Source: Candidatus Xenobia bacterium (GTDB lineage Bacteria > Vulcanimicrobiota > Xenobia > Xenobiales > QWHO01). From it: DNA of 40,950 nt. Position 1 is the first letter of the stretch. Each line of letters starts with the position of its first letter. The DNA is taken from the NCBI GenBank assembly GCA_045863235.1, contig BTUM01000071.1, positions 1 through 40,950 of the forward strand, written 5' to 3'. This document shows, piece by piece, positions 1,640 through 37,658 of this stretch. Position numbers and translations under genes: made by a program. The notes under the pieces are model-generated. The model searched no databases. It saw nothing but the letters and a program-made list of their open reading frames with translations, and was not told the origin of the DNA.

Positions 1640-1643
1640 GCCG

Positions 1644-17019: not shown

Positions 17020-17469
17020 TCACCTCGCTCCCGTGTAGGTTTGAACTGTCTGGGTGACCACCGTGGCCACCACTCCCAAACCGGTTACGGCCGCCGTCCA
17101 CGGCCCCCATCCCAGGGCCTGTCCGGCCAGGCCGGCGGCGGTCACGAAGCTGCCGGCCGCGCTGGCGATCCGCCAGGGGCCGGGAGATTCCTCGCCGCCA
17201 AAGACTCTGTAGGCAGCCACCCCCAGGTTGGCCACCGCCAGCACGCCCGAAGCGATCCGCAGCGGCATCCAGGCGTCGGCGGCAGTGCCCGGGCTGAGCT
17301 GGTCGAGCACGAAGCCGCCCAGGCTGCCCTGGGCCACCTGCCCGGCGGCCACGCTGGTCAGCCCGGTGGTCAGGCTGGCTGCCCCCATGGCCACCGACTG
17401 CGCCACCTGCAGCCGCCGCCCGCGCCGCTCCCGCTCGTAGGGCAGCAAGCTCGACTCGCTGACGTTCAT
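17020..17469 (-). CDS. Small Gly/Ala-rich membrane protein (paralog 1 of 3; start corrected to MNVSESS)
   Basis: 149 aa; GSFVTAAGLAGQALGWGPWTAAVTGLG; ATGA overlap with the upstream gene's stop and AGGAGG RBS. Confidence 0.8.
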   Translation of the reverse strand: MNVSESSLLPYERERRGRRLQVAQSVAMGAASLTTGLTSVAAGQVAQGSLGGFVLDQLSPGTAADAWMPLRIASGVLAVANLGVAAYRVFGGEESPGPWRIASAAGSFVTAAGLAGQALGWGPWTAAVTGLGVVATVVTQTVQTYTGAR

Positions 17470-20036
17470 GCCTGTCCCTCCTTCTTGCCGATGCGCACCC
17501 CACCGATCACCAGGTGGTCCTCTTTGTCCTTGATGCGCCCGCCGTTCTCGAAGTGCTCCAGGGCCTCGGCTTTGGCTTTCTCGACCTCGGCCCCCATCAC
17601 CAGACGACGGCCCACCTCGGTGATCAGCTCGACCGGCCCGATGTTGCGATGCTCGAAGCTCCACAGCAAGAGCGAGCGGGCCGCCTCGTAGGGGTTGTGC
17701 CGCCCGGTCTGCTTGAAGACCAGCAGCGTGCCCGCGTGGGTGCGGGTCAGCTCCTCGAGCTCGGCCGGACAGTCGGGCCAGTGCTGGCTCCTTTGATCGC
17801 GCACGAAGGCGTACTCTTGCACCGCCCTCCCCACCGAGTCGCAGCCATCGAGCATGGGCTCGAGCATGCGGGTCATCGAGTAGGCTGACTCCCCTTCCGT
17901 CTTCAGAACCTTGCCCAGCTCCTCGGCTTGCTCTTTTTGCTCCGCCCTGCAGAGCAGGTTGAGGTAAGCGCGGAAAAGACCCGAGCTTGACTGTCTCTCG
18001 ACCTTGCCTCGAGCCAGCGCGCCGGCGGCCTGCTCGAGCGCCGTGGAGACGAGCTCGGGCGGGCGGTTCTTGTTGTGCTCGAGCAGCACGGGGTGGATCT
18101 TGAGCAGATCGTCGGTGGGCGGCAGGCAGCGCTCGGCCGTCTCCAGCAGGCCCACGGTCTGGGCGATGGAGTTGCCCAGCTCGAGGTACTCGCTGAAGGC
18201 CGAGCGACGCGAGCGGAACTCGCCCTCGGTGCGCGATTGGGCCAGCAAGGCGGCCATGCGGGTGCCCAGCCCCAGGTCATCGGTCTCGCGCGAGAGCTGG
18301 ATGACCAGCTTCTTGAGCCGGTCGTGGTCGAGAAAGCGGGGGGGCTTTTGGAGCAACTCGTAAGCCTGGCGGACCGCCTCCGAGTCGCGCGCGTTGGCCA
18401 TCTTGAACAGGTCCTTCAGGTCCGACAGGCCGCCTCGCAGATCGTGGGCCGAGTGCTTTTGCAACAGGCGCAGGTCGGTCAGGGCCTGCTCGGGATCGGG
18501 GTCGAACTCGAGCAGCGTGCCGAAGGCCCCCTCGTAGGTGACCGGCTTGCGAAACCAGCCCCCCGGGCTCTGGGCTGGCGGGGCGTTCTCGTGCAGCTTT
18601 TGATAGCAGTCGCGCAGCTCGTCGTGGTGGTCGCGGTCGACGCGTCCGAGCAGCTCGAGGTAGGTCTCGGCGGCCTGCTCGAGCCCGCCGGCGGGGCGGT
18701 CGGTGGCCAGCCACTCGAGGTCTTTGAGAGCCTGGTCGGGATTGTCCCCCACCTCGACCAGCTTGAGGTAGGTGCGCTGGCGGTCGGTCCTGGCTTCAGG
18801 CGAAGGCGCTCCGCGCAGGAAGTCGAGCACCTTCAGGGTCTCGGCCCCGGTCGGAGTGCGCTCGCGCAAGCTGCGCAGCATGGCGAACTCATCAGCCTTG
18901 AAGCCATTCTGGCTCAGGTGCTCGAGGTCGCCCAGGGCCTCCTCGACGCCCATTCCCACTTCCAGCAGGCGCTCGAGCTTGCCCGAGGCTTCGGCTGGCA
19001 GGGCCAGGTTGCGCTCGTAGATGGCGCGGTCGTCGGTGTGCTGCACGAAGCTCAGATAGCGCCGGGTCTCCTGCTCGCGATCGGCCGTGGGGGCAAGCTG
19101 GGAGTCGAGCCATTTGAAGTCGTCCAGGGGGCGGTTCTCGCCCAGCATTAGCTCCAACGCCTTGAGGTGGGACGCGCCCTTGCCGTCCACGTAGAGGAAG
19201 CCTTCGCGGGCCGGTTCGGCCTGTTCGGAGAGCTCGAGCAGGTGGAGATACTGCTTGAGTCGTCCGGGTGCATCCGGCCGGGCGGCCAGGGTGGGCAGCA
19301 GGGTCTTCAGCTCTTGCTCGGCCTGCTCCAGGTTGCCCAGGTAGTTGCTCATGGTGTCCAGGCTGGAGCCCAGCTTCTTGTCGGTCAGGCCGTCCACCGG
19401 CTGGCCGGCCAGCAGCCTGGCGGCCAGCTCGCGCGGGCTGGGGGGCTCGACCGGAGCCGGCTCGGGCGCGGGTGCTGGCGTGGGCTCAGGCGTGGGCTCC
19501 GGCTCGGGAGCTGGCGGAGGCGCGGCCAGGTGGGCGGCCACCTCCTCGGGTGTGGCAAAGCCGTGCTCGCGCAGCGCGTCCACCCACTGGCGCACCATGC
19601 GCTCGCGCTCGCGTCCCGGTTGGCTGTGGGTTCTGAGGTATTCCGAGTGGGCCAGGGTCTGGCCCACCTGGCCCGGGGTGACCTCGGCCAGAGCCGCAAA
19701 GTAGCCCGCCATGGCGGGTTCCTTCTCATAGTGATCGAAGGCCAGCCGGCCGGAGGCGAGCTCTCCCTGGCACACCTCGAGGCGCTCGAGGTAGCGATGG
19801 AAGGCGGGTTCGAACTGGGCCCCCTGCGGCAGCTCGGGGAGCAGTTCCTTGAGGGCGGCGGCCGCCTCCTCGCTGCTCCCGGACAGCCGGGCCATGCGGA
19901 TCAGCCCTTTGCGCAGGGCTTTGCCTTCGGCCCCCGGCGGGGTCTGTCCGGCCATGACCTGGTCCACCGAGTCGGCGCTGAGGACAGCCGGACGCGGCGT
20001 GGCAAAAAGCAGACTTCGACCCACGGCGGGTAGCAT
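17466..20036 (-). CDS. Large alpha-helical hypothetical protein with Pro-rich linker and conserved C-terminal VIGGVxIxKK motif
   Basis: 856 aa from ATG 20036 (MLPAVGRS); PPPAPEPEPTPEPTPAPAPEP linker; ends IKDKEDHLVIGGVRIGKKEGQA; no signal peptide. Confidence 0.8.
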   Translation of the reverse strand: MLPAVGRSLLFATPRPAVLSADSVDQVMAGQTPPGAEGKALRKGLIRMARLSGSSEEAAAALKELLPELPQGAQFEPAFHRYLERLEVCQGELASGRLAFDHYEKEPAMAGYFAALAEVTPGQVGQTLAHSEYLRTHSQPGRERERMVRQWVDALREHGFATPEEVAAHLAAPPPAPEPEPTPEPTPAPAPEPAPVEPPSPRELAARLLAGQPVDGLTDKKLGSSLDTMSNYLGNLEQAEQELKTLLPTLAARPDAPGRLKQYLHLLELSEQAEPAREGFLYVDGKGASHLKALELMLGENRPLDDFKWLDSQLAPTADREQETRRYLSFVQHTDDRAIYERNLALPAEASGKLERLLEVGMGVEEALGDLEHLSQNGFKADEFAMLRSLRERTPTGAETLKVLDFLRGAPSPEARTDRQRTYLKLVEVGDNPDQALKDLEWLATDRPAGGLEQAAETYLELLGRVDRDHHDELRDCYQKLHENAPPAQSPGGWFRKPVTYEGAFGTLLEFDPDPEQALTDLRLLQKHSAHDLRGGLSDLKDLFKMANARDSEAVRQAYELLQKPPRFLDHDRLKKLVIQLSRETDDLGLGTRMAALLAQSRTEGEFRSRRSAFSEYLELGNSIAQTVGLLETAERCLPPTDDLLKIHPVLLEHNKNRPPELVSTALEQAAGALARGKVERQSSSGLFRAYLNLLCRAEQKEQAEELGKVLKTEGESAYSMTRMLEPMLDGCDSVGRAVQEYAFVRDQRSQHWPDCPAELEELTRTHAGTLLVFKQTGRHNPYEAARSLLLWSFEHRNIGPVELITEVGRRLVMGAEVEKAKAEALEHFENGGRIKDKEDHLVIGGVRIGKKEGQA

Positions 20037-20067
20037 GCCATGAAAGTAGCGCGAGGGGCTGAAAGAA
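20037..20067 (-). promoter_or_regulatory. Putative leaderless promoter (shared motif)
   Basis: TTCTTTC-N12-TACTTT-CATGGC-ATG, no SD; same layout at 21617-21647 and 33805-33836. Confidence 0.5.
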
Positions 20068-20107
20068 CCCTGATCAGTGCTGATCGGACAGCGACCCGGG
20101 CAAAGGA

Positions 20108-21616
20108 TCAGCGCAGGGCGCGGGCGTGCGCGCCGGGGTCGTAGGCAAAGCGGCCGTCTTCCCAGAAGAGCATCCAGGAGTAGCCCTTCTGGGCCGCCTG
20201 GCGTACCTGAGAGCGCAAGCCCCTGGCCGGGTCGGCCTCGGTGATGCCCACCTCGGCGTTGGGGGGCAGGTTCAGCTCCCAGGCGGCCGGCACGTTGGCA
20301 ATCGGCTCGTAGAGGTGGAAAGTGTAAAGGAACTTCTGATCGGGATGGCGTTCGGCCAGGTAGGTCCAGTGCGAGAGCTCGCGGTAGTTCTGCACTCCTA
20401 CCGTCAGCGTTGCCCCGGGGGCTTCCTGGGCGAAGAGCTCCACCAGGTCGTTGACCAGCGCCTGGCGCCCCGCCTCGGTCACCCCGCTGACGCCGTGGAT
20501 CTCGTTGACCAGATCCCACACGATGGGCCGCTCGCCGAACTCGCGCACGAAGGGGCGCAGGGCTTCCACCAGCTCCTGGCGAGCCCCGGGATCGTTCATG
20601 GCCTTTTGCACGGTCTGGTTGGGGATGGCCCCATCGAGCAGGGTGAACATGAAGTGTTTCTGGCCGTAGCGCTCGGAGAGCTCGAGGGCCTGGCGCATGG
20701 CCTCGTGCTCGCGTTCGCCGAGGCGGATACCCCCGGCCGTCTCGCGCAGGTCCAGCCCGCCCATCCAGCGGAAGCTGTCCAGCCCGTTGTCTTGCTGGGC
20801 CGCAAAGGTTCGTTCCAACTCGGGCTTCACGTTCTCGAAGTCGTGCAGGTCGCCGTAGTGGATGTACTGGCTGACCCCGTGCTTCACCTGGTCGAGCCGG
20901 AGGGGGCGGGGCGCGTCGGGAGTGGTCTTGAGCAGCGGTCGCTCCTGGGCGCGAGCCGTATCGCCCGGGCCCACCTTGAGCAGGCGGGCCTGCAGCAGTC
21001 GCACCGTGCCGTCCACAGGGGAGTTGATGCCGACCGTCAGGCTATGCAGCAGTCGGGCCGGATCGAAGGCCAGGTCGGTGTGTCCCTGGATGCTCTCGGC
21101 CCGCGGGGTGGGGTCGTAGGTCAGCTTCAGGCGTCCGGTGGCAGCGTCGTAGCCGGGGTTCTCGGCCACCGGGATGCCGGCCGTCCAGGTGGTCCACTGT
21201 TCCGCGCCGGCCGAGTCGCGGGCATGGATCTGCACCGCCACGTCACCTCGTCCCCGCATGGGCTCGGGCAGCTCGAGCACCACCTCCAGGGCGCGCTCTT
21301 GCATGGCGAAGACCTTCTGGTCGAACTGGAAGGCCCCATAGCCGTTCCCTACCTCGATGGGTCGCTCATCCTCCAGGATGCTCTCGGGCGCGTTGATCAC
21401 CACCCCGATCACGCCTGCCACGGCGGCGGCCGCCAGCAAGCCTCCTGCGATGGCCGCCTTCCAGCCCTTGCGGGACTCGGGCGGCTCCTCGGCCGGAGTG
21501 GATCCGACCGACAGGCGCACGCTGTCGACCCCGGCCTGCTCGGCCGGGCGGGCGCCGGGCGGAGGCCTGCGCTCGAGCTGCGAGGCTGACTGCGGCATGG
21601 TAGAGTGCACCAGCAT
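20108..21616 (-). CDS. Membrane-anchored clan GH-A (GH5-like) glycoside hydrolase with a beta-sandwich/CBM-like domain
   Basis: TM helix near residues 55-73; TIM-barrel motifs FRW, WDLVNEIH (acid/base), TFHLY, GITEAD (nucleophile), MLFW. Confidence 0.65.
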   Translation of the reverse strand: MLVHSTMPQSASQLERRPPPGARPAEQAGVDSVRLSVGSTPAEEPPESRKGWKAAIAGGLLAAAAVAGVIGVVINAPESILEDERPIEVGNGYGAFQFDQKVFAMQERALEVVLELPEPMRGRGDVAVQIHARDSAGAEQWTTWTAGIPVAENPGYDAATGRLKLTYDPTPRAESIQGHTDLAFDPARLLHSLTVGINSPVDGTVRLLQARLLKVGPGDTARAQERPLLKTTPDAPRPLRLDQVKHGVSQYIHYGDLHDFENVKPELERTFAAQQDNGLDSFRWMGGLDLRETAGGIRLGEREHEAMRQALELSERYGQKHFMFTLLDGAIPNQTVQKAMNDPGARQELVEALRPFVREFGERPIVWDLVNEIHGVSGVTEAGRQALVNDLVELFAQEAPGATLTVGVQNYRELSHWTYLAERHPDQKFLYTFHLYEPIANVPAAWELNLPPNAEVGITEADPARGLRSQVRQAAQKGYSWMLFWEDGRFAYDPGAHARALR

Positions 21617-21647
21617 AACCCGAGCTTACCCGGGGGGAATGAAATTT
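21617..21647 (-). promoter_or_regulatory. Putative leaderless promoter (shared motif)
   Basis: AAATTTC-N12-TAAGCT-N6-ATG, no SD. Confidence 0.5.
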
Positions 21648-21666
21648 CCCCGAACCCTGCTAGGAG

Positions 21667-21705
21667 CGCAGCCGGAAACCCCCTTGACACGGTTTTCCGG
21701 CTGCG
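21667..21705. other. Strong hairpin between the pilin and glycosidase genes (possible terminator)
   Basis: cgcagccggaaa (21667-21678) pairs with tttccggctgcg (21694-21705); no clear U-tract; the loop contains TTGACA. Confidence 0.5.
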
Positions 21706-21709
21706 TGAC

Positions 21710-21802: not shown

Positions 21803-22348
21803 CTAGCGCTCGATCAGACCCTGGCTGCTGGTATACTTCGGGTGGTCGGCGGGCATGTTGGCGGCCTCGTGGTTGAGTCCCTTGCACATGACCGTGAAGG
21901 CGCCTTCGGACTCTCGCAGCAGGTACTCGCCAGCCAGCGGGCAGCGAACTTTGGGGTCGAGCTTGCCAGAATCGTTCAACCGGGCCAGGTTCGCCTGACA
22001 TTCGGGGTTTTCGGCATGATAGCCCGGGCACACGATTTTCGGCCTCTTGAGAGGGGTGTGGTGGCTCTCGAAGCTGGAGCTGTAGGTGTCAAAGCCCGCG
22101 ACGGGGCAGTTGGGGATCATCTTGAGGTAGTTGGGGGTCAGACCGGCGAGTTGGGGAGGATAGGCCCCCTTGTTGTCGGTGCTGAACATCTCCAGCGCGG
22201 TGGCGATGTTCTTGAGGTTGGATTTGCAGGCGGTGCTCGCTCCGCGTGGTTTGACCTTGATGAAGTTGGGCACGACGATGGCCGCGATCAGGGCCAGGAA
22301 GGCCAGGATGGCCAGCACCTCGATGATGGTGACACCGTTTCGCTTCAC
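21803..22348 (-). CDS. Type IV pilin / T2SS pseudopilin (prepilin N-methylation motif)
   Basis: GTG start with GAGGGG RBS; MKRNG|VTIIEVLAILAFLALIAAIVVPNF (Gly-1, Glu+5); ACKSNLKNIATALEMFSTDNKGAYP pseudopilin helix; 6 Cys. Confidence 0.88.
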   Translation of the reverse strand: MKRNGVTIIEVLAILAFLALIAAIVVPNFIKVKPRGASTACKSNLKNIATALEMFSTDNKGAYPPQLAGLTPNYLKMIPNCPVAGFDTYSSSFESHHTPLKRPKIVCPGYHAENPECQANLARLNDSGKLDPKVRCPLAGEYLLRESEGAFTVMCKGLNHEAANMPADHPKYTSSQGLIER

Positions 22349-22455: not shown

Positions 22456-25400
22456 TCACCCCGGTGGGGGTGGGCCCTGCTCGGGTCCTTCTTCGCGCTT
22501 TTTCACCCGGACCGAGCCGACGATGACGGCCTGCTTGGTGTCCTGGATGGCGCTGTTGGGCCCGGCGTCGAGAATGCGGTCGAGGGCCGCGTCCACGTCT
22601 TCGGCCACCAGGGCCGCGGGCAGCCGGCTCAAGAGCTGGGTGGCCTCGGCACCGGTCAGCTCGCCTGCGGCCATGCGCATGCCCAGGCGGTTGAGCACGG
22701 CCGCCCCCACGTTGACAGGCAGCCCGGCCAGCGTGGTCAGGGCGGCGCAGCGAGTGGCGGCGGGAACCTCCCGGTCGGCGGCCAGGGCGACCAGTCCCTG
22801 CGCGGCAGAGCGGCCGCCATCTTCGCGATAGCCGTCGCCCACCCGCAGGTCCGAGAAGGTCAGGCCCCGACCCTGGTTGGAGGCGTCCGACGAGAGCCGG
22901 AATCGCAGACGCGCCGTCTTGCCCTCGTAGGCGGAGAGACCCACTTTCTGGGGTCCGCGACCCTCGCCGGTGAACTGGGCCACGGTTTGCCAGCCCTCGG
23001 CACCCGAGGAGGCCTCCACGAAGACCCCATCGTAGCCCTGCTCGAGCTCGTAATCGGTCTGGAAGGTCAGGGGCCCGTTCACGAGCAAGGGCGGGCTGGT
23101 CAGCGAGGCGTTCTGGCTGGGCCGGTAGGTGTCGTGGGGGCTGGTGCGCCAGCCGTCGGGCCCGGAGCGGCACCACTCCCCCTCGGCCTGCCAGCCGCCG
23201 GCCTGTAACAGGTCGCGCAGATTCGCCAGTGCTTTGAGGGCCGGCGGCTCCAGCCCCGCCTCGCGCAACCCCTCCACCTCGACGCCCAGCGGAGCAAAGC
23301 TTGCCGCCAGCGTGGTCAGCTCGATCTCGTGCGCCAGACGCTCCTCGGGGACGTCCTTCATACTCTCCCACAGCTTGAGTCCCGCAGTCCGGCCCTGGAG
23401 CTCGATCAGCCGGGCCAGGGCCTGCCGGCGGGGGCCGTCCTGAGGAGCCAGGCGAGCCAGGTCCAGAGCCACCGGCAGGCCGTGGGCCGAGGCCAGGGCG
23501 GTCAGGCTGCGGCCCTGGCCGAGCGACTCGAGCACCCCCTGGAACTGCTCACCCAGTGCCCGGGGCCGATCGTCGAAGGCCTCGCCCACCTGCAGGTTGC
23601 GCAGCGCGAAACCCTCCTGGCAGTTGCTTGAGTCCGATGTCAGGCGAAAGCGCAACTGGACGGTCTGGTCTGCGTAGCTGGAGAGATCGACCTCGCGCTT
23701 GCCCCAGTCGGCCTGCCCGGTGAAGCTTTCCAGCGTGCGCCAGTCGCCGTTCCGGCCCACCTGCAGCTCGACCCGATCGTAACCCTGCTCGAGCTGGTGG
23801 CGGCACTCGAAGCTCACTATTGGCGAGCTCTGACCCGCCAGCGAGATGGGTCGGGTGGTGAGCGCGCTGTCCTCGTTGGGGCGGTAGACCCCCATCAGGT
23901 TGTCCACCCAGCTCCCGTCCGGCAGGCGTTTCCAGGCGCTCTTCTCCCAGCCGCCGGCGACCCCCACCAGGCTCTCCAACTCCCCCACGCTGCCCTGCTT
24001 GAGAAGGTCGCGGGTCAGCCCCAGCAAGGTCTCCTGGCGGAGCGGCTGGGCCAGGGTGTAGCTCAGCTCGCGTCCCAGCTCGAAGGCTCGGGCGGCCTCG
24101 GTGGCCTTCCCCGGACCCACCTCCGGCCACAGGGCCACGGCCGCCTCGGTGCCGATGGCCGCGGAGAGCTCGCGCAGGGCCGGATCCTCACCCAGCGGCA
24201 ACAGGTCGAAGGCCTGGGCGGGATGCCCACCCAGGCGCACGAGTGCCTGCAGCGTAGAGGTGTCGCCCTTCTTGGCCAGGTCCAGCAGGCGATCCAGGGT
24301 GGCTCGTCGGCTGGAGGGTTGGTCCGAAAAGACGACCCGACGCGGGGTGGAGCTGTCGTAGGCGGGTTGAGCATCCACCACGAAATCCTTCAGGTCCAGC
24401 CCCTCGGCCTGGTTGGAGGCGTCCGACTGGAAACGAAAGCGCAGGCGGATGGCCTCGCCCTGATAGGCTTTGAGCGAGACCTCGTGGGCCTGCCATGCGC
24501 TCGTGCCGGTGAAGGCGGTGAGGTGATCCCAGCTCTGGCCGTCTCTGGACGCTTCCAGGGAAACGTTGTCGTAGCCCTTCTCCAGCTCGTGGCGCACCGA
24601 GAAGCGGGCCACTGGTTCGCTCAGGTGGGCCAGGCTCAGCTCGGGGCTGGTCAGGGAGGCGTTCTGGTTGGGACGGTAGGGACCGGCCGGGCTGTCCGAC
24701 CAGCTCCCGTCAGGGTTGCGGGCCCAATGTCCCTCGGCCTGCCAGGCCTGGCTCAGTCGCTCCACCAGCGCCTGCAGGGCGACTCGACCCGGCTCGGAGA
24801 GGGGTTGCAGCTGATCGCAGACCTTCAGGGCGGCCTCCAGACCTGGCTCGGGGGCCAGCTCCAGGGCGGCTCGGAAGGTGCCCAGGTCGATTCCTCGGCT
24901 GGCCAGGGCCACGGCTGCGGCTGGACCCACCTCGCGGTTGAGCTCCATCAACGTGGCCGTGCCGGCCGGGTTCTGCAGCACCGCCTGCCACAGGGACAGG
25001 GCCTCGGCCGGGGTGGCGCAAGCGTCCACCAGCTGCTCCAGGGGCTCGACGGGGCGGCCGTCGGCCAGGGCTCGAGCCAGCTCGCCCGCCAGCCGGGCAC
25101 GCTCGGCCCGGGGGGACTCGTCGAACAGGGTCTGGCTCTGCGAGCCGAAGCGCGGAACACCCTCCACTTTGAGTCCCGAGAGCGAGAAGCCCTCTTGCTG
25201 GTTGCTGCTGTCCGAGGAAAAGAGAAGGCGCAGATGAGCGGTCCTGCCTTCGTAATCGGCCAGCGAGAGGCTCTCGTCTTGCCAGTCGCGCTTGCCGGTG
25301 AAGCTCCTCAAGGTCTCCCAGCTCTGGCCATCCTGGCTGGCCTGAAGCTGCACCGAGTCGTAGCCAGACTCGAGATCGAAGCTGGCCCGAAAGCTCATCT

Positions 25401-26436
25401 TGACCTGCTGGAAATTGTTCAGTGTCAGTGGGGGCAAGCTGAGCGCGGCGCGCTGGTTGGGCTGGTAAGGGCCCGGGGGACCGTCGGTCCAGATTCCGTC
25501 GCGGAGCGCCCAGGTGCCTTCGGGTTGGAGCTGGTTGGACGTTCTCGCGAGCAAGTCCCTGACCCGGTCCTGCCCGGCCGGGTCGAGGGCAGCGACGGCT
25601 GCGGCCGCTTGCGGGTCTTGCAGCTCGCGCAGCCAGTCGAGGTAGGCCGGACGCCGATCGGTCGGCAGCGCTTCCAGCGCCAGGGCGGCCTCCAGCGGTC
25701 GCTCGGAGATGAGCTGGCTGACGCTGTCGAGGTGCTGCTGGCGCTCTCGCCAGGCGCTCAGATCCAGTGGCTGTCGCACGCTCCAGGTGCCCAGCGGAGC
25801 GCCGCGATGCTGCAGATGCAGCTCCTCGGCACCGGAGCGGTAGGCTTCCAGCGCATCGCCCAGGTAGCCTGCTTCCTCGAAGGCGCGGGCCGCTTCGCCC
25901 ACCCGAGGGCGCTCCAGCGATTCGAGCCCGGCCGTCCCCTGGAGGTAGGCCAGCATGGCGACATCCTGGCCGGAGGTGAGCCGGGCCCGGCGGGGCCCGT
26001 CAGTCTCCAGAGGCTGGCCCTGGGCCAACCGGCTGTAAGCGGCCCACGGCTCGAGCTTCTCCTCCCCGACCTGGAAGCGGAAGCCCAGCCGGGTCAAGCT
26101 CTCCATGTGGTGAGCCAGCTCGGGGTGGGGGAGACGCTCGGGGGTCTTCGTCTGGAAGGCGTGCAGCGCCTGCAGCTCTTGCTTGTCGCGCAGAGGCTGC
26201 CACTTGCCGGCCTGCAGCACCTGCAGATCGTCCGGCTCGTCGTTCAAGACCAGCTCGGCCGCCTCGGCCGGGCTCGCCTGGGTCCAGCCCAGCAGCTTCA
26301 GCCAGCGGGGCTGGCGGAATTCGAGGCCCTGCTCTTTGAGGGTGGTGAGCATGTCCACCGGTCCCTCGTCCAGAGGGCGAGAGGCGGCAGTGGGGGGTAG
26401 GGTGAGCCGGAGGGGTAGGATCTGCACGTCCTCCAT
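22456..26436 (-). CDS. 1326-aa modular protein: novel N-terminal domain, four MAM/immune-inhibitor-A-like beta-sandwich domains with helical spacers, conserved C-terminal motif
   Basis: Four copies of W.D...Y.PN....L...LE.GYD...W..L..FTG...LRFR.SD.SN..G; ends IQDTKQAVIVGSVRVKKR; no signal peptide. Confidence 0.8.
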   Translation of the reverse strand: MEDVQILPLRLTLPPTAASRPLDEGPVDMLTTLKEQGLEFRQPRWLKLLGWTQASPAEAAELVLNDEPDDLQVLQAGKWQPLRDKQELQALHAFQTKTPERLPHPELAHHMESLTRLGFRFQVGEEKLEPWAAYSRLAQGQPLETDGPRRARLTSGQDVAMLAYLQGTAGLESLERPRVGEAARAFEEAGYLGDALEAYRSGAEELHLQHRGAPLGTWSVRQPLDLSAWRERQQHLDSVSQLISERPLEAALALEALPTDRRPAYLDWLRELQDPQAAAAVAALDPAGQDRVRDLLARTSNQLQPEGTWALRDGIWTDGPPGPYQPNQRAALSLPPLTLNNFQQVKMSFRASFDLESGYDSVQLQASQDGQSWETLRSFTGKRDWQDESLSLADYEGRTAHLRLLFSSDSSNQQEGFSLSGLKVEGVPRFGSQSQTLFDESPRAERARLAGELARALADGRPVEPLEQLVDACATPAEALSLWQAVLQNPAGTATLMELNREVGPAAAVALASRGIDLGTFRAALELAPEPGLEAALKVCDQLQPLSEPGRVALQALVERLSQAWQAEGHWARNPDGSWSDSPAGPYRPNQNASLTSPELSLAHLSEPVARFSVRHELEKGYDNVSLEASRDGQSWDHLTAFTGTSAWQAHEVSLKAYQGEAIRLRFRFQSDASNQAEGLDLKDFVVDAQPAYDSSTPRRVVFSDQPSSRRATLDRLLDLAKKGDTSTLQALVRLGGHPAQAFDLLPLGEDPALRELSAAIGTEAAVALWPEVGPGKATEAARAFELGRELSYTLAQPLRQETLLGLTRDLLKQGSVGELESLVGVAGGWEKSAWKRLPDGSWVDNLMGVYRPNEDSALTTRPISLAGQSSPIVSFECRHQLEQGYDRVELQVGRNGDWRTLESFTGQADWGKREVDLSSYADQTVQLRFRLTSDSSNCQEGFALRNLQVGEAFDDRPRALGEQFQGVLESLGQGRSLTALASAHGLPVALDLARLAPQDGPRRQALARLIELQGRTAGLKLWESMKDVPEERLAHEIELTTLAASFAPLGVEVEGLREAGLEPPALKALANLRDLLQAGGWQAEGEWCRSGPDGWRTSPHDTYRPSQNASLTSPPLLVNGPLTFQTDYELEQGYDGVFVEASSGAEGWQTVAQFTGEGRGPQKVGLSAYEGKTARLRFRLSSDASNQGRGLTFSDLRVGDGYREDGGRSAAQGLVALAADREVPAATRCAALTTLAGLPVNVGAAVLNRLGMRMAAGELTGAEATQLLSRLPAALVAEDVDAALDRILDAGPNSAIQDTKQAVIVGSVRVKKREEGPEQGPPPPG

Positions 26437-26605
26437 TCCAGCGCAAACCCCTCAAAGGGGCCTGAAAGCACGCATTGACAGAATGCACATTGTGTGAACT
26501 CAGCACTCTGTGGGCCCGGAAAGCAGTTTATGCCGCTTGAAGGGTTGTGAGGTCATCATGGCGCACTTTTGCTCCCCACGTCGATGACTCAGAAAGGAAC
26601 GACCG

Positions 26606-29545: not shown

Positions 29546-29671
29546 TCAGGCTCGCTTCTTCAGTACCACGCCGCCGATGACCAGCGAGTCCTGGTCCTCG
29601 CGCACGGTATTGAGCGTGCCCGGGGAGATCAGCTTGCCAACCTCGCTGGTGCTGAAAGAAACTTTACCCTG
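29546..29671 (-). pseudogene. Start-less 41-codon frame encoding the family C-terminal motif
   Basis: Between TGA 29672-29674 and TGA 29546-29548 it reads QGKVSFSTSEVGKLISPGTLNTVREDQDSLVIGGVVLKKRA*. Confidence 0.55.
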
Positions 29672-30849: not shown

Positions 30850-31965
30850 ATGAACATTCGCGAAGCCGCCCCCTCCCAGCCCCTGACCTTCGCCCCGACT
30901 CGCCTGCCGGTGGGCGAGCCGGCCGGGCCCACGGCCCTCGAGCTGCCTCTCGACCGCGGCCCCGAGCACGTTGACCGGCGCCGTTCCCTGGACGCTCGCT
31001 ACGATGCCTACATGAAGGTATTGCTCGAAAACAAGAAGGTGGCGGACCTGTCTGACGCCGAGCTGCAGGCGCTCGACTCGCGCGGCGCCAACGTGTCCGC
31101 CCAGCGTGCCTCCCGGGGCCACTTGACGGCTCGCGAGGCGGTGCGCCTGAGCAACGCTGACAAGAGCGGCGAGATCTCAAAGATGCTCAGCCTTCGCCCT
31201 GACCTGCGCGAGGAGGACCTGTTCGAGGAAGACATCAACGGCAACAAGTTCCTGCGTCCCAGCCTGCAGGACCCGAATCGTCGGGCCACGCTGGCTGCGC
31301 GACCGGACCTGCGCCCCATCGACCTCGACAATACCCGCGACCCCAAGATGCTTACCCTACTCTCCAAACGGCGCGACTTGCGGCCGCCCGAGCTCGAGCA
31401 GATGAAGCAGGGTTTCTTCGACAGGATCAAACCCTACTTCCCTCCCGCAGTGGCGGCTTCGCTGGCCCAGCAGTGCTCGGATGAGTCCATGGAGGTCATG
31501 TCCTTGCGCGGGCCGGATACCCGTCCCGACAGTCTCATGCGTCTCTACGACTCGATTCACGGGGCGGTCGGCCCGATGGGTGGGCAACAGACCCCCTTCC
31601 TGTTCCTCAAGGGCCTCAGCGTGCTCAAGTCGCGACCCGACATCAGTCCTGACGGCCTGTCGCTGCTGGCCGGGACGGTCGGCGACGTGGGCCATGGGGC
31701 CAGCTCGGCCAGCATCGGTGGCTGCCTCGATCGCTGCTTCACGGCCCTGCTGAACCCCGACATGCAGCTCGGCCAGGTCCTGGGAGCGGCCGAGGGTGCG
31801 CGTCAGTTGCCCCCCGATCCCAATCTGCGCATGGAGGTGCTGGGGCGCACGGCGCTCGGGCTCGAGCCAGCCGGCCGACCCCGCCAGGAGGGGCCCGAGC
31901 CCAAGAAGCCTGTCGTCGACCCTCAGCCCGCGCCCGCTCCGAACGCCAGGCCTCAGGCAGCCTGA
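30850..31965 (+). CDS. Hypothetical protein with RPDL-type repeats
   Basis: 371 aa; LSLRPDLREE, LAARPDLRPI, LSKRRDLRPP, LRGPDTRPD, LKSRPDISPD. Confidence 0.75.
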   Translation: MNIREAAPSQPLTFAPTRLPVGEPAGPTALELPLDRGPEHVDRRRSLDARYDAYMKVLLENKKVADLSDAELQALDSRGANVSAQRASRGHLTAREAVRLSNADKSGEISKMLSLRPDLREEDLFEEDINGNKFLRPSLQDPNRRATLAARPDLRPIDLDNTRDPKMLTLLSKRRDLRPPELEQMKQGFFDRIKPYFPPAVAASLAQQCSDESMEVMSLRGPDTRPDSLMRLYDSIHGAVGPMGGQQTPFLFLKGLSVLKSRPDISPDGLSLLAGTVGDVGHGASSASIGGCLDRCFTALLNPDMQLGQVLGAAEGARQLPPDPNLRMEVLGRTALGLEPAGRPRQEGPEPKKPVVDPQPAPAPNARPQAA

Positions 31966-32122: not shown

Positions 32123-33778
32123 TCAGAACGAGTTGAAGATGTTTAAAGCATACAAGAACTCGTAGATCGGTCCGCCCAGGTGGTCGACCGGCACGAAGTA
32201 GGCGTAGCCCAACTTCTCGCTGAAGACCGACAGCACCTGAATCTGGCTCTGGTCGATCTTGATGGCGTTCTTGATTTTACCGGGATAGCTGGCGAGCAGG
32301 AAGTCGAAGTTGTTGGACACGACCACCGAGTCCTGGGCCAGGGTGATGATGCTCACGCCCTGGTCGGCCACCGCGGTCAGGTCGACGTCGGCTGCCAACA
32401 GCACCTGCTGCAACTCGGCCTGGGCCTCGGGGGTCAACAGGTTGCTGCTCACCAGGGGATCGATGCTGTTCTTGCTGGTGAAGGCCACCTCGATGGGGCC
32501 GGGGTAGCTGGCTCCATTGCCGGTTTTTCCCAGCCCTGAAGCCAGCACCTCGGTGGCGATGGTGGTGTCGGGCAGGGCGAAGGCCTGGGCGATGTTGACC
32601 TGCTGACCGTTCACGTTGCAGAGATCCTGCAGGACGGGAAAGGTCGCCTGCATCGCAAAGAAGTCGGCGTTGAAGATGCTCAGGAAATTGGAGCCGACCG
32701 AGTAGGTGGCGTAGCTGAGGAAAGCATCGGCGCTGAGAATCGGCTTGACCATGTTGACCAGCGTCTGGCTCTGCACGTTGTAGGGGTTGGAGCCGCTGGC
32801 ATCCACGTCGTCGAAGAGGTAGCCGTAGGTGATGGAGGAGGTGTTGTAGGCGCCCTCCATGCCCACTGAATGGGTGAGCTGGTAGAAGGGGTCGAGCAGG
32901 CCCGGGTTCTCGGAAAGGTAGATGTTGAACCAGAGCGAGTAGGCACCCCCCTCGGAGTAGCCGGCTGAAAAGAGCTTCAGAGGCGGGGCGTCAGGGGCGA
33001 AGTTGTATTCGTCCACGATGGTGGGCTGGACGGCGGCAAGCATGTCTACGGCCGTCTGGGCTGAGACCCGCGGGTAAAGCACGTAGGGGTGGACATTCTG
33101 CCAGTCGTCGCCCTGGCCGACATAGTCGGGGATCAACACGATGTAGCCCTGAGAGCCCCACACCTGCGCGGTCAGCTGGGTTTCGTTGTTGTCGGCGTAC
33201 TCCGAGCCGACCTGCTCCTTGTTGAAGGTGGTGCCGTGGAAGTAGACGATGACGCCCTTGACCTGGGAGGCCGAGATGCCCTGGGGCATCAAGAGCCCGC
33301 CGGAGACCTGGAAGGTCTCCGGTCCAGCGGGCAGAGGCACGGTGGTCTGATAAGAGACGGGTTGGAAGGATACGCCCGTGACTCCCAGCGGGTTGTTTGA
33401 GATGGGCTGGGCGTTGAGGTCGAAATTACCGGTCTGGGGCTGGCTCTTGATGAAGGCGATGTCGTCCACCACCTGGGGGGTGCTCGTGGTAACGCCCAGC
33501 TTCTGGCTCAGATGGCAGAACAGGATCTCATAGGCCGTCTCGAGGTCCTGAACCGAGATGGTCATCGGGGTGCCTTTGGGCGCAACGGGCAGAGGGATCG
33601 GATCGAGGTGATCGCCGGGCACCAGCTTGAGGGCCGTGTCGGCGTCGGCGACCATGGCTTGCTGGATGATCTCCGCGTCGGTCGGGGGGGCGGGAGCGAA
33701 GGTGGAGAAGGGCTGGTCCTGACCGCTGCCGCAGCCGAGCAGCACCAGGAGCAAGGCGAGGATGGCATACTTTCTCAT
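32123..33778 (-). CDS. Lipoprotein alpha/beta hydrolase (secretory lipase-like; start corrected to MRKYAIL)
   Basis: Lipobox LLGC; YFHGT, PDYVGQG, nucleophile AGYSEGG, candidate Asp QDSVV and His VDHLGG. Confidence 0.82.
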   Translation of the reverse strand: MRKYAILALLLVLLGCGSGQDQPFSTFAPAPPTDAEIIQQAMVADADTALKLVPGDHLDPIPLPVAPKGTPMTISVQDLETAYEILFCHLSQKLGVTTSTPQVVDDIAFIKSQPQTGNFDLNAQPISNNPLGVTGVSFQPVSYQTTVPLPAGPETFQVSGGLLMPQGISASQVKGVIVYFHGTTFNKEQVGSEYADNNETQLTAQVWGSQGYIVLIPDYVGQGDDWQNVHPYVLYPRVSAQTAVDMLAAVQPTIVDEYNFAPDAPPLKLFSAGYSEGGAYSLWFNIYLSENPGLLDPFYQLTHSVGMEGAYNTSSITYGYLFDDVDASGSNPYNVQSQTLVNMVKPILSADAFLSYATYSVGSNFLSIFNADFFAMQATFPVLQDLCNVNGQQVNIAQAFALPDTTIATEVLASGLGKTGNGASYPGPIEVAFTSKNSIDPLVSSNLLTPEAQAELQQVLLAADVDLTAVADQGVSIITLAQDSVVVSNNFDFLLASYPGKIKNAIKIDQSQIQVLSVFSEKLGYAYFVPVDHLGGPIYEFLYALNIFNSF

Positions 33779-33804
33779 GGCCCGCACCCTTCGCGCTTTC
33801 TGAA

Positions 33805-33836
33805 TTCTTTCCGCCCCGCCCGTTAAGCTGCATGGT
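33805..33836 (+). promoter_or_regulatory. Putative leaderless promoter (shared motif)
   Basis: TTCTTTC-N12-TAAGCT-GCATGGT-ATG, no SD. Confidence 0.5.
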
Positions 33837-36800
33837 ATGGAGATCCGTCCCACCGGACCGGTGCGCGCCAGCGCGCCCGGCGAGAGCAAGGTCGTCGAGC
33901 AGTTGGTCCGCGATGTCGTCGAGGCGGGAGCCGAAGTCACGGCGCCGCGCTGGTGGCTGCCCTTCTGGCCGCGCCGCGTGGAGCCCGAAGAGGTGGCCGA
34001 GCAGCTGCCCGAGGGCAAGCTGCGCATCCAGCTGCCCGGCCAGAGCCCGCTCCCCCTCAAGTGCCAGCAAGATCTCGAGGAAGCGGCCATCTTTCAGCGG
34101 CTCAAGCCGGCTCCGCCTGGCTCGCCGGCCGAGCAGTTGCTGGCCCTGGAGGGTGACGGCTGGCAGTTCGCCGACGACCAGGGCCGCAAACTTGGACCCT
34201 ACGGGGCCTACAACGCGCTCACTGATCCTGCCCACGGCCTGACCGGACTCGTAGCCCACAACCACAACGGAGCCGTGCCGCTCGAAAGCGAGCTGAAGCT
34301 GGGCGAGTTGCACCGGTTCCGCGGCACCGAGTCGGCCCGCTTGGAGGCCGAGGGGTGGGAGTTCTTCGACGAGCAGGGCCGCCCCCAGCCGGCTCTGAGC
34401 GCCAGCCAGATCGGAAGAGACAGGGAGCCCTGGATCGAGGCCGGCGACCCGGCCACCCGGCGCGAGCGCCTCGACCGGTTCGCCGCCCGGCTCGAGAAGG
34501 TGGACGGTGAGGTGGAGCTGGTGCGGCGCTTCGAACGCCACCCGGGCGACCTCCAGACCCTGCTGCAGGGGATGAAGGGGGATCGGCGGCGTGCCCTGGC
34601 GCGCCTTGCGCTGAGCGAGATGGCCCCCATGCAGGATGCGCGCCAGGCCGGCGCCGACGTCGAGCTGCAGGGTCTGTGGCTGGAGGCGGCCGCCGAGAAG
34701 GACTCCGGGGCCCGGGTGGCGCTCGAGGTGCACCGCCGGCTGGACTTTGCCCGCGAGCCCGCCTGGCAGGCGGCCCTGGCCGGCGGCGACGGTCTGGCCG
34801 TGGCCCGCACGCTTTCCCGCGATCTGGACAAGCTCCAGGCCGAGCGTCGCACACCGCTCTGTCAAGCCATTCTGGAGGGGCTGACCGACGTGAGCGCCGC
34901 CCGGGCCGCAAGCACCTGGCAGACGAGCGACCCAGCTTCTTGCCTCAAGAAGCTCCTCTCCGAGCCTTCCATCGACCCGGCTCGCCTCGCTCGCGAGAGC
35001 CTTCCGCGCTACGACGCTGCCGCCCAGCGCCGGGCGATGGCTCCCGGGCCGCTGCTCGAGCTGCACGAGCAGCTCAAGGACGTGGATGCCTACCATGCCG
35101 TCTTCCAACTCGCCACCCACAATCCCACCGACCCGGTGCAGCTGTGCGGCTCCCTGGTCAAGACCCTGGAGGGCCGCTCGGTGGACCACGAGGATCGCGT
35201 GGTCCTGGGCAACTTCCTGCTCGATCGATTGAGCCAGTCTCCCTCCCACCAGCGCGCCGCCGCCGTCGTCCGGAGCTGGCATGGCCGCGACCCCTATCAA
35301 GCAGCCGTCATCGCTCTTGAGCAGCCGAATGCGAGTGATGCAGACCTGGCGCTCCAGGGCATCACCCGCTGGGACACGGCCAGCCAGCAACGTTTCCTTG
35401 GACAGCTGAAGGGTCCGCTCTCGCCCTCCCTGCTCGCGCTGCACAAGCAGCTCAAGGACGTGGATGCCTACCATGCTCTCTTCCAGCTGGCCTGTCAGAG
35501 CCCGACCGACCCGGTGCAGCTCAGTCGCGACCTGGTCAGCAGTCTGGAGGGCCGTTCGGTGGACCACGAGGATCGAGTCGTCCTGGGCAACTGGATGCTC
35601 GATCGGCTGAGCGAGACTTCTTCCCATCAGAGAGCCGCCTCCACCATCCGCCAGTGGCAGACCAGGGACCCGTACCAGGCCGCCGTGATCGCCCTGCAGA
35701 GCCCCACCGCCAGCGACCAGGAGCTGGCCCTGCAGGGCATCACCCGCTGGGATACCGCCGGCCAGCGCCGCTTCCTGTCTCAACTGCAGGGCCCGCTGGC
35801 CCCCTCGCTGCTCGAGCTACACAGCAAGCTCCAGGACGTGGACGCTTACCACGCGGTCTTTCAGCTGGCCTGCCAGAATCCGACGGACCCGGTCAAGCTC
35901 TCGCGCACCCTGGTCAGCACCCTGGAGGGCCGCTCGGTGGACCACGAGGACCGGGTGGTGCTGGGCAATTGGATGCTTGACCGCCTGAGTGAGGCTCCTT
36001 CGCACCAGCGCGCCGCCGATACCATCCGCCAGTGGCAGGCCCGCGACCCCTACCAGGCGGCGGTGATCGCCCTGCAGAGCCCCACCGCCACTGATCACGA
36101 GCTGGCCCTGCAGGGCATCACCCGCTGGGATACCGCCGGCCAGCGCCGCTTCCTGTCTCAACTGCAGGGCCCGCTGACCCCCTCGCTGCTCGACCTGCAC
36201 AACAAGCTCCAGGACGTGGACGCCTATCACGCGGTCTTTCAGCTGGCCTGCCAGAGCCCCACCGACCCGGTGCAGCTCTGCGGCGCATTGGTTCAGTCCC
36301 TCGAGGGCCGTTCGGTGGACCACGAGGACCGGATCGTGCTGGGCAACTTCATGCTCGATCGCCTGAGTCAGGCTCCCTCTCACCAGCGCGCCGTCGGCAT
36401 CATCCGTCAGTGGCAAACCCGCGACCCCTACCAGGCGGCGGTGATCGCCCTGCAGAGCCCCACCGCCAGCGCTCACGAGCTGGCCCTGCAGGGCATCACC
36501 CGCTGGGATACCGCCGGCCAGCGCCGCTTCCTGTCTCAACTGCAGGGCCCGCTGACCCCCTCGCTGCTCGACCTGCACAACAAGCTCCAGGACGTGGACG
36601 CCTATCACGCGGTCTTCCAGCTGGCCTGCCAGGGCCCGGCCGACCCGGTTCAGTTCTCGCGCGAGCTGGTGAAGACCCTGGAGGGGCGCTCGGTGGACCA
36701 AGAGGACCGGGTGGTGCTGGGCAACTTCATGCTCGATCGCCTGAGTCACCTGGGCCCGGCCCGGGCGGTGCGCCGCTGGCAGGTGCGCGACCCCTACCAG

Positions 36801-37658
36801 GCCGCCAGTGTGGTGCTCCAGCATCCCAAGGCCAACGATTCCGTCATCGCACGGCAGGCGATCTCGCGCTGGGATGCGGCCGGGCAGCGCCTCTTCATGG
36901 CCGAGCAGACCGGGCCCATGGCTGGCTCCTTGCTCGAGTTGCACAAGAGTCTCAAAGACCCAGACTGCTACCACGCCGTTTTCGAGCTCGCCGCCCAGGA
37001 CCCCCAGGCGGCAACCGGCGGCGAGCGCGCTGGAGCCCTGGCGGGTCTGTTCGGCTCCATGGCGGGTCGCTCGGTGGAGCACGAGGACCGGGTGACGCTG
37101 GGCCACTGGGTGCTCGACCAGCTGGCGGGGCAACCGGACACCCGCCCGGCGGCCGAGGCGCTGCGCTTCTGGAACGTGCGCGACCCCTACAACGCCGCCA
37201 GCGCCCTGTGCGACCATCCCTCCCTGAGCACGCCGCAGGAGCTGGACGCCCTGGCGCTGGCCGCCATCGGCACCTGGGACGTGGAGGCGCAGGCGCGCCA
37301 CCTCCAGCAGTTGCTCGCCCGTCCCGGGGCCCCCCCCTGGCTGGGCCGGGTGGCCGAGCTGCACGGCAAGCTCGGTGACTCCAAAGCCCGGGGTGCTGTC
37401 TGGAGCCTGGCTGCCCAGGGCAGCGCCGGCAACCTGCAAGAGATCGCCGACCGCCTGGGTCAGCTCAACTTGAGCTGGGAGGACGGCCAGGTGCTCCAGA
37501 GTCTGCTGGCCGAGATCAAGGCCGAGCTCGAGACGCGCAAACTGGTCGCCGGTTTTCAGGAGAAGAACCAGGCCATCGCCGTGGAGCAGGATCGCGTGCT
37601 GGTGGGGGGAGTGGTCATCCGGCGCAAGTCCGAGCCCACCCCGGAGGCCAGCGGATAG
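33837..37658 (+). CDS. 1273-aa modular protein: novel N-terminal domain, 126-aa helical tandem repeats, conserved C-terminal motif
   Basis: Repeats LHxxLxDVDAYHAVFQLA...LEGRSVDHEDRVVLGN...DPYQAAV...ITRWD; ends IAVEQDRVLVGGVVIRRKSEPTPEASG; no signal peptide. Confidence 0.85.
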   Translation: MEIRPTGPVRASAPGESKVVEQLVRDVVEAGAEVTAPRWWLPFWPRRVEPEEVAEQLPEGKLRIQLPGQSPLPLKCQQDLEEAAIFQRLKPAPPGSPAEQLLALEGDGWQFADDQGRKLGPYGAYNALTDPAHGLTGLVAHNHNGAVPLESELKLGELHRFRGTESARLEAEGWEFFDEQGRPQPALSASQIGRDREPWIEAGDPATRRERLDRFAARLEKVDGEVELVRRFERHPGDLQTLLQGMKGDRRRALARLALSEMAPMQDARQAGADVELQGLWLEAAAEKDSGARVALEVHRRLDFAREPAWQAALAGGDGLAVARTLSRDLDKLQAERRTPLCQAILEGLTDVSAARAASTWQTSDPASCLKKLLSEPSIDPARLARESLPRYDAAAQRRAMAPGPLLELHEQLKDVDAYHAVFQLATHNPTDPVQLCGSLVKTLEGRSVDHEDRVVLGNFLLDRLSQSPSHQRAAAVVRSWHGRDPYQAAVIALEQPNASDADLALQGITRWDTASQQRFLGQLKGPLSPSLLALHKQLKDVDAYHALFQLACQSPTDPVQLSRDLVSSLEGRSVDHEDRVVLGNWMLDRLSETSSHQRAASTIRQWQTRDPYQAAVIALQSPTASDQELALQGITRWDTAGQRRFLSQLQGPLAPSLLELHSKLQDVDAYHAVFQLACQNPTDPVKLSRTLVSTLEGRSVDHEDRVVLGNWMLDRLSEAPSHQRAADTIRQWQARDPYQAAVIALQSPTATDHELALQGITRWDTAGQRRFLSQLQGPLTPSLLDLHNKLQDVDAYHAVFQLACQSPTDPVQLCGALVQSLEGRSVDHEDRIVLGNFMLDRLSQAPSHQRAVGIIRQWQTRDPYQAAVIALQSPTASAHELALQGITRWDTAGQRRFLSQLQGPLTPSLLDLHNKLQDVDAYHAVFQLACQGPADPVQFSRELVKTLEGRSVDQEDRVVLGNFMLDRLSHLGPARAVRRWQVRDPYQAASVVLQHPKANDSVIARQAISRWDAAGQRLFMAEQTGPMAGSLLELHKSLKDPDCYHAVFELAAQDPQAATGGERAGALAGLFGSMAGRSVEHEDRVTLGHWVLDQLAGQPDTRPAAEALRFWNVRDPYNAASALCDHPSLSTPQELDALALAAIGTWDVEAQARHLQQLLARPGAPPWLGRVAELHGKLGDSKARGAVWSLAAQGSAGNLQEIADRLGQLNLSWEDGQVLQSLLAEIKAELETRKLVAGFQEKNQAIAVEQDRVLVGGVVIRRKSEPTPEASG
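35052..37420 (+). repeat. Intragenic 378-bp tandem repeat (5 exact-period units plus 2 degenerate)
   Basis: The first Asp codon of DVDAYH recurs at 35079, 35457, 35835, 36213, 36591 (period 378), then degenerate at 36957 and 37377. Confidence 0.93.

Follow-up and report, generated by a model that had tools for sequence, protein, structure and literature searches.

Flagellar export is known to use an N-terminal hydrophobic signal (PMC8983047), and in the Salmonella rod and hook subunits FlgE, FlgC and FlgG a separate targeting signal at the C terminus comes into play ahead of it; this C-terminal signal lies in the helical D0 region and is confined to those few structural subunits (PMC10936197). 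In the literature, injectisomes form a single flagellum-derived lineage, with other exaptations suggested and poorly resolved, and flagellar type III secretion systems (T3SSs) were probably exapted several times, for example in Buchnera, whose flagella are reduced to basal bodies; Myxococcales have a needleless T3SS* (PMC3459982). Here we analyze a stretch of 40,950 nucleotides (the window), which is contig C71 of an 8.36-Mb, 97.6% complete genome (G000) of a Candidatus Xenobia bacterium and in which a first-pass annotation had pointed out four copies of an 18-residue motif as candidate C-terminal signals on large proteins. Homologs of a neighboring protein of the system bear the names Ca. Xenobium, Ca. 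Bruticola, Ca. Eremiobacterota and Vulcanimicrobiota, which places the genome in or near class Xenobia; a comparison of NuoL with named genomes was uninformative on this point. We call this motif the tag and find that it marks a co-regulated class of proteins in a genome that encodes a flagellum-derived export machine. Type III signals are notorious for having no consensus; a shared 18-residue tag together with a shared promoter would make cargo predictable from sequence and substrate sorting directly testable.

To define the tag, an iterated profile was run on G000, with a threshold of 20 bits, with position left out of training and with reversed sequence as a control. The profile found 202 windows at or above threshold, compared to 1 in reversed sequence, and 188 of the 202 lay within 25 residues of the stop codon. 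Tagged genes make up about 2.8% of the 6,919 genes that we called in G000. The first-pass annotation had expected many more copies genome-wide and a bias toward the C terminus, and both were found, while random positioning was not seen; its own strict pattern had 18 matches genome-wide, 16 of them within 12 amino acids of the stop. The consensus was [VIL]-x-E-x4-V-x-V-G-G-V-x-[VL]-[RK]-[RK]-R, and it follows a G-, A-, P- and S-rich linker. Seven tags were internal, four of which precede a common beta-repeat domain, and one protein carried two tags in tandem. The common domain spans about 200 amino acids of roughly 22-residue beta-repeats in four paralogs (G000:C135, C32:68047, C3:76161 and C3:123382), with no further copies in the genome. 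The tag matched no described family: NCBIfam gave 0 families for 34 tails, Pfam gave no family on more than one of 127 tails, and the PDB gave no match, the best being uL24 at an E value of 1.1. A resemblance to CsrA or uL24 was dropped, as the genome encodes no CsrA and uL24 scored no better than that. A single-sequence model of the tail had three beta strands at a predicted local distance difference test score (pLDDT) below 50, and a three-copy complex prediction scored 0.02 and was used neither for nor against trimerization.

The tag was found only in Eremiobacterota, as far as the sequence searches reached. Among 1.84 billion representative sequences, 8 matched at an E value of 0.001, all with a C-terminal copy, and the 3 that were named belong to Ca. 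Eremiobacterota. Four genus relatives had 102 to 149 matches each (among the best 150 or fewer that were scored), and a broader profile found the tag in 13 of 151 genomes surveyed across the phylum, in six families, with none in the 81 genomes of the largest family sampled; the lineage specificity proposed earlier is thus borne out. Weak matches that were inspected were C terminal in 12 of 12 cases in genome G040 and in 11 of 11 in G013 and G025, and one in G007 was not. An earlier and looser search had only 6 of 23 matches C terminal, and the top matches in six further distant genomes were C terminal in 14 of 14 cases, mostly on proteins with similar N termini. In G013 and G025 the tag had an acidic G-D in place of G-G and lacked the basic end. 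The beta-hairpin with a basic tail that was originally proposed therefore holds for the beta-strand fold, at the low confidence of the model, and not for the basic end, which is not universal. A nuclear localization reading of the basic end was set aside because of the acidic variant. Such family-specific drift, from G-G and basic to G-D and acidic, would fit coevolution with one partner encoded by the bacterium itself.

Tagged genes shared a promoter. Upstream of them we found TTTCAG-n5-TTTCAG-n10-TAnnnT, a direct repeat with an 11-bp period followed by a −10 box. TTTCAG-n10-TAnnnT occurred 138 times compared to 3 to 12 times at other spacings, and the n5 repeat spacing occurred 113 times compared to 5 to 17. 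A promoter profile found 392 sites in G000 and 19 in the reversed control, with start codons mostly 6 to 7 nucleotides past the −10 box, and promoters were present on 118 of 186 tagged genes and on 232 of 6,733 others. Leaderless start sites were predicted for 117 of 123 tagged regulon members, compared to 133 of 231 untagged ones. The pattern was abundant in other families with large genomes and near background in genera with small genomes. A repeat with an 11-bp period just upstream of a −10 box is the arrangement used by OmpR- or SARP-type activators, which suggests that the regulon has an activator of one of these types. None of 26 winged-helix regulators had the promoter upstream, and a likeness of the promoter to the HilA box found no confirmation in the literature searched. 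One activator candidate among about a dozen is a SARP-like regulator with receiver and BTAD domains (L092:8940-11261), located near flgFGJ and a pilin paralog. We conclude that the tagged genes belong to a single regulon with about 390 promoters.

This promoter, together with the N-terminal signature of the tagged proteins, was also present for 231 untagged proteins. For signal peptides and hydrophobic hairpins, our own hydrophobicity rules were applied to our own gene calls, and 195 tagged proteins were counted after one false positive and one remnant had been excluded. Only 1 of the 195 was signal peptide-like, compared to 1,593 of 6,164 other proteins, and none had a Tat signal, in keeping with the earlier claim that Sec and Tat signals are absent. 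Instead, tagged N termini had a disordered stretch rich in S, P and T that starts with M-x-[IV]. Residue 3 was I or V in 69% of leaderless tagged proteins; the share was 13% for other genes and 20% for the 265 other genes that are leaderless-like. Moreover, an internal hydrophobic hairpin was present in 38 of 61 tagged proteins of at most 350 amino acids and in 223 of 3,644 others; in those inspected by reading, the hairpin sits between coiled coils, and the full layout of N-terminal signal, coiled coil, hydrophobic hairpin and coiled coil was found in 46 of 195 tagged proteins.

The tagged and untagged members differed in kind. Pfam scans covered 124 of 197 tagged proteins and 68 of the 231 untagged ones, the latter a nonrandom sample picked by genomic clustering that excludes three internally tagged proteins, a pilin-like protein and a TonB receptor. 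Among the 124 tagged proteins there were 19 PQQ-type propellers, 1 WD40-like protein, 5 with MAM repeats, 1 HD protein and 98 with no family; none was a housekeeping enzyme or an RTX family member. A catalytic family was found in 25 of the 68 untagged proteins and in 1 of the 124 tagged ones (P = 3e-12), the untagged enzymes being nucleases, phosphatases, peptidases, acyltransferases, phosphodiesterases, an amylase, a caleosin and a heme peroxidase. We conclude that the regulon comprises two classes, one untagged and often enzymatic and one tagged and almost devoid of enzymes. The caleosin (L264:1-576) and the animal-type heme peroxidase (L249:14507-16960), both under the regulon promoter, hint at lipid-rich or eukaryotic targets. 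A YidD-clostripain fusion protein (L248:1220-3694; G000:C7:90750-93224) has the regulon promoter 7 nucleotides before its start. About a dozen untagged relatives of the tagged MAM proteins, of 660 to 780 amino acids (G000:C5:159855-165307, C5:178264-180498, C31:25905-28034 and others), have similar N termini and no promoter match and are probably more cargo under other control.

G000 encodes a single operon, flgB-flgC-fliE-fliF-fliG-fliH-fliI-fliJ-slt-fliK-short flgE-fliM-fliN-fliN-fliO-fliP-fliQ-fliQ-fliR-flhB-flhA, and elsewhere flgF-flgG-flgJ and, truncated where its contig ends, a FliA-like sigma factor. Operon synteny was kept in all six relatives compared. Like the flagellar export apparatus, it has FliF, FliG, FliM, FliN, FlgB, FlgC, FliE, FlgF and FlgG and an FlhA of the flagellar class, which scored 815 bits with the flagellar model (cutoff, 772; passed) and 617 bits with the SctV model (cutoff, 692; failed); FliI belonged to clade 2. 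The export core and basal body of a motility flagellum (FlhAB, FliPQR, FliHIJ, FliF, FliG/M/N, FlgBC and FliE) are thus present. Unlike in a motility flagellum, however, the operon hook protein was shortened to 271 amino acids (another short FlgE-like gene, with 38% identity to the operon copy, lies at G000:C94:9093-9752), and the outer parts were missing. Flagellin (PF00669) had no match in G000, there was no FlgK among the rod and hook matches, and tblastn with FliC, FlgK, FlgL and FliD of the relative G013 gave no match. The sole PF01618 match was an ExbB beside ExbD and a TonB receptor, a G013 MotA/B-like pair gave no match, and neither did FlgA, FlgH and FlgI of G013 as queries for the P and L rings. 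FliS, FlgM, FliW and CsrA were not found either.

A gap in the assembly is an unlikely cause of the missing filament genes, because in a survey of 41 related genomes an FHIPEP match was present in all 41 (full-length FlhA in 36, the other five genomes being 64 to 88% complete) and flagellin in only 8, each of which had a second full-length FlhA; four more genomes had a second FlhA and no flagellin match. In G013, the one such genome inspected, the second locus is a complete true flagellum whose FlhA is about 42% identical to the conserved one and whose filament and motor genes had no match in G000. For the motility flagellin of G013 (L163:1319-3169), the match to flagellinolysin (HExxH) was weak and fell far short of the cutoff. 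Furthermore, the cytoplasmic domain of FlhA has five soluble paralogs in the G000 genome (L086:8016-9437, L087:8977-10074, L088:9635-10873, L089:8867-10855 and L090:7662-9830), two of them fused to an FliG_N-like domain, and relatives had 2 to 19 FHIPEP matches; these paralogs could possibly be extra docking platforms.

Abby and Rocha define nonflagellar T3SSs by their core genes, a secretin in the cluster and the absence of flgB, flgC and fliE (PMC3459982). Homologs of seven or more out of the eight core genes were present here and were of the flagellar class, and the machine falls outside that definition because flgB, flgC and fliE are kept and no secretin lies in the cluster. By gene content it is neither a nonflagellar T3SS in that sense nor a motility flagellum, and it looks like a separate exaptation from the flagellum. 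Lysobacter reportedly has a residual flagellar T3SS. Like that case and those of Buchnera and Myxococcales, the machine appears to be a nonmotile type III export core reused for a purpose other than swimming; unlike them, it is conserved across the order and beyond, stands alongside a true flagellum in some genomes and comes with a candidate filament subunit, expanded soluble FlhA paralogs and a tagged cargo class.

Other export routes were searched for in the same genomes. VirB4 of type IV secretion systems (T4SSs; PF03135) had no match in G000, the sheath of type VI secretion systems (T6SSs; PF05943) was found in 0 of 41 genomes, the phage-type sheath PF04984 was found nowhere in G000, and none of 22 matches to TIGR01843 (HlyD), the adaptor of type I secretion systems (T1SSs), reached the cutoff. 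Loci for a type II secretion system (T2SS) and a type IV pilus were present. Judged by gene content, the flagellar-type type III apparatus is the only exporter independent of signal peptides that we found in G000, and the co-occurrence with a type III or flagellar exporter that the first-pass annotation suggested as a check is thus found in this genome.

Downstream of flhA lie three genes for protein-identical 81-amino-acid proteins and one for a 473-amino-acid protein that ends in the same domain. In G000, G001 and G004 the third 81-amino-acid copy had the regulon promoter. In a language-model comparison, the look-alikes of the 81-amino-acid protein were clusters of HrpA/HrpE pilins (0.91, 180 shared features), and we consider it somewhat more likely than not that the protein is a pilin. 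Its family was present in 44 of 151 phylum genomes, including all 13 that bear the tag, and had no match in genus g4, where an 81-codon open reading frame (ORF) at the pilin's syntenic position in G007 (L161:6484-6726) may encode a subunit that has diverged. Among RNA runs, 22 contained part of the pilin locus, five of them at a share of at least 0.34 (wastewater, sludge and bioreactor; three studies), and RNA contigs covered the 81-amino-acid genes in 4 of 4 runs, which were chosen with that stretch and whose contigs can neither rank genes nor show starts. On this reading the system resembles Hrp and other nonflagellar T3SSs in its type III core, its small, multicopy, helical and HrpA-like candidate subunit and its large, co-regulated, signal peptide-free cargo, and differs from them in keeping flgB, flgC and fliE, in having no secretin in the cluster and in having no CesT chaperone.

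We infer a mechanism in which the regulon products would be exported unfolded through a flagellar-type apparatus with rod and shortened hook and, by gene content, no flagellin, junction, cap, motor or P and L rings. Export would be directed by the S-, P- and T-rich, M-x-[IV] N terminus, and we regard export by this machine and this signal as likely. The 81-amino-acid protein would build an Hrp-like pilus for contact with prey or host cells. Given export, we think it somewhat more likely than not that the tag folds into a beta-meander of three strands at the end of a flexible G/A/P/S linker and docks by beta-sheet augmentation on one bacterial partner, such as a multicargo chaperone or an export gate factor. 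Docking would then set the nonenzymatic class (adhesin-like repeats, propellers and membrane-inserting hairpins) apart from the digestive enzymes. We tentatively prefer this account of the tag as an auxiliary docking handle that sorts one cargo class. The idea first proposed, in which the tag itself serves as export signal, was not supported in that form: 231 untagged proteins have the same promoter and N terminus, no tag was found in 31 of the 44 genomes with the pilin family, and seven tags are internal. The docking-tag option, raised alongside it, fits best. Unlike the Salmonella C-terminal signal, the tag is of the beta type and sits on about 200 nonstructural proteins.

A number of points weigh against this account. 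Export and the reader of the tag are both matters of inference. Among reader candidates, G000 had no CesT family chaperone and no match to FliS, FliW or CsrA; a CesT-type chaperone was rejected as the reader, as there was none in the genus, and the number of soluble FlhA paralogs does not track the tag, since genus g4 had 11 to 19 FHIPEP matches and no tag was found there, though these paralogs could still be readers. No partner family was enriched adjoining tagged genes, with nothing among 336 neighbors except generic kinases and sensors. No outer membrane channel was found for the machine, the three secretin matches lying on other contigs away from the export cluster (in the T2SS locus, in the type IV pilus locus and as one weak stand-alone match). 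The promoter was present on one pilin copy only and not on the export operon, and the test for promoter enrichment is partly circular because it was upstream of tagged genes that the pattern had originally been noticed. The pilin assignment comes from one language-model lookup, in a cluster of which only 23% carries PF09589; the 81-amino-acid protein had no match in Pfam, NCBIfam, PDB sequences or Foldseek, and its model is a single long helix. The co-occurrence of tag and pilin is weak evidence because the tag was not found in 31 of the 44 genomes and kin are not independent. The low pLDDT of the tail model and the homemade rules behind the signal peptide and hairpin counts should be added to this list.

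The main alternative is that the proteins leave by the same type III machine and the tag acts after export: last out of the channel, it would either tether diverse binding heads to the pilus or to the cell surface or localize effectors in prey or host cells through one conserved target. The binder-like tagged cargo (the propellers, WD40-like and MAM proteins), the internal and tandem tags and the lack of a cytoplasmic CesT chaperone would suit such a role. Chlamydial Incs, too, have a bilobal hydrophobic domain of 40 to 60 amino acids and no signal peptide (PMC3048545), a layout which the hairpins in 38 of 61 short tagged proteins share, with no sequence relationship seen, and IncE binds its host target by sheet augmentation with a C-terminal beta-hairpin (PMC5348129). 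Incs share no common tail, however, and no vacuole or host is on record for these bacteria. Moreover, the same tag core occurs across several classes of the phylum, probably with different prey or hosts, and the tail charge flips between families, as would hardly be expected if the tag addressed one fixed target in a host, for instance as a nuclear import or membrane lipid signal. We consider an action after export somewhat unlikely.

If the co-regulated proteins were retained, the tag might instead be an oligomerization module, a degron or another cytoplasmic or inner membrane motif. Folding or assembly could be helped by a short beta-meander that follows helical or coiled-coil regions, and the hairpin proteins could insert into the bacterium's own membrane. 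We think retention improbable, as a role outside the cell is suggested by the MAM/choice-of-anchor J domains and by the nucleases, phosphatases, peptidases and lipid enzymes among the untagged proteins of the regulon, the conserved disordered N terminus on nearly all cargo would have no explanation, and housekeeping enzymes number 0 among the 124 tagged proteins scanned. Still less probable is a tag that serves as the primary, self-sufficient signal of another pathway (T2SS or type IV pilus, T1SS, T4SS or an unknown system). Signals of T1SSs and T4SSs are as a rule C terminal, the tag is extremely biased toward the C terminus, and the genome has T2SS and type IV pilus loci, but cargo of these two needs Sec or Tat signals, which tagged proteins lack, VirB4 had no match and no HlyD match reached the cutoff. 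Internal tags and the 231 untagged proteins with the same N terminus do not fit either. The tag is like the T9SS C-terminal domain (type IX secretion), the T1SS and T4SS signals and LPXTG or PEP-CTERM in being a short conserved C-terminal element on unrelated proteins; unlike these, it comes with no signal peptide, no transmembrane helix of its own and no Pfam or NCBIfam model. Its acidic variant also differs from the basic T4SS signal, and the lack of contractile sheath genes separates the cargo from that of T6SSs and extracellular contractile injection systems.

Extending the docking-handle account, a large part of Eremiobacterota (Xenobia and neighboring classes) might have made a second, independent transition from flagellum to injectisome. 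A basal body of rod and short hook would polymerize an Hrp-like pilus, and co-regulated proteins, several hundred in number, would be delivered into cells of prey or host under a two-signal code, in which the portable C-terminal beta-meander marks the contact and membrane insertion class apart from the digestive enzymes. We regard the whole of this as possible but doubtful. If true, a flagellar exporter that is conserved and has no filament, together with its candidate pilin and cargo genes in the hundreds, would offer a second extant example in which to study the transition. It would also offer a concrete mechanism for the predatory lifestyle that Paoli et al. predicted from gene content for a family of this class, for which they list secretion genes with no description of the system in the accessible part of that work (PMC9259500). 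No account of the tag or machine was found in the literature searched, with two supplements of PMC9259500, bioRxiv supplements and most subscription papers outside its reach. The kind of system, exapted flagellar export, is known; this system and its tag appear to be undescribed.

Within the window, the tag copies and regulon members are arranged as follows.

16185..17469, minus strand, three small untagged hydrophobic ORFs (149, 122 and 148 amino acids) with starts MNV or MKV, directly behind gene A; no Pfam match
17466..20036, minus strand, tagged protein A, 856 amino acids, all-helical; no Pfam or NCBIfam family; first of a four-gene run
17481..17534, minus strand, tag copy 1, 41 bits, 4 amino acids before the stop
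20043..20076, minus strand, regulon promoter of protein A (direct repeat and −10 box); ATG 6 nucleotides downstream
20108..21616, minus strand, untagged regulon member, 502 amino acids, same N-terminal style
21623..21656, minus strand, regulon promoter of the 502-amino-acid gene, 21.5 bits
22456..26427, minus strand, tagged protein B, 1,323 amino acids, repeated InhA-like MAM/choice-of-anchor J beta-sandwich domains
22495..22548, minus strand, tag copy 2, 43 bits, 12 amino acids before the stop
26435..26468, minus strand, regulon promoter of protein B; GTG 7 nucleotides downstream
29546..29671, minus strand, pseudogene remnant with tag copy 3 at 29552-29605 and a TTTCAG box at 29652-29657
33796..33829, plus strand, regulon promoter of protein D; ATG 7 nucleotides downstream
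33837..37658, plus strand, tagged protein D, 1,273 amino acids, shared N-terminal module and helical repeats
37575..37628, plus strand, tag copy 4, 40 bits, 9 amino acids before the stop

All four 18-mers translate exactly as the first-pass annotation quoted them, and all three full tagged genes have the regulon promoter. Its lengths of 856 and 1,273 amino acids for the full proteins stand; the third, given as 1,326, is more likely 1,323, with GTG 26427 as the start of protein B, 7 nucleotides past the −10 box, because ATG 26436 falls within that box. The three proteins had also been called unrelated in their cores, which is not wholly so: proteins B and D fall in one 38-member BLAST cluster, joined through common neighbors with no direct match. 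Protein A had one paralog by BLAST clustering in the genome, at C5:35982, and a search for structural look-alikes gave nothing usable. Its transcript is predicted to be leaderless because the ATG lies 6 nucleotides past the promoter, and the three small ORFs behind it are probably co-transcribed cargo.

Copy 3 had been listed as the end of a fourth locus. Its frame, however, runs for 41 codons from stop to stop with no start codon, and the remnant consists of a lone TTTCAG box joined to the last 32 or so codons of a lost 264-amino-acid hydrophobic-hairpin gene. The genus relative G004 has the whole gene, promoter and tag included (264 amino acids; 91% identity over 97 bp), and at the same site G001 retains only the promoter and 5′ end of the gene. 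We conclude from these alignments that copy 3 is a deletion remnant and no gene.

The rest of the window includes ordinary neighbors, namely a nuoI-N operon (239-6345), a type IV pilin-like gene (21803-22348) and feoB/feoC (38726-40950). Two orphan ORFs (9617-10984 and 30850-31965) have low-complexity or M-x-I N termini, ribosome-binding sites and no promoter match, and these could possibly be further cargo.

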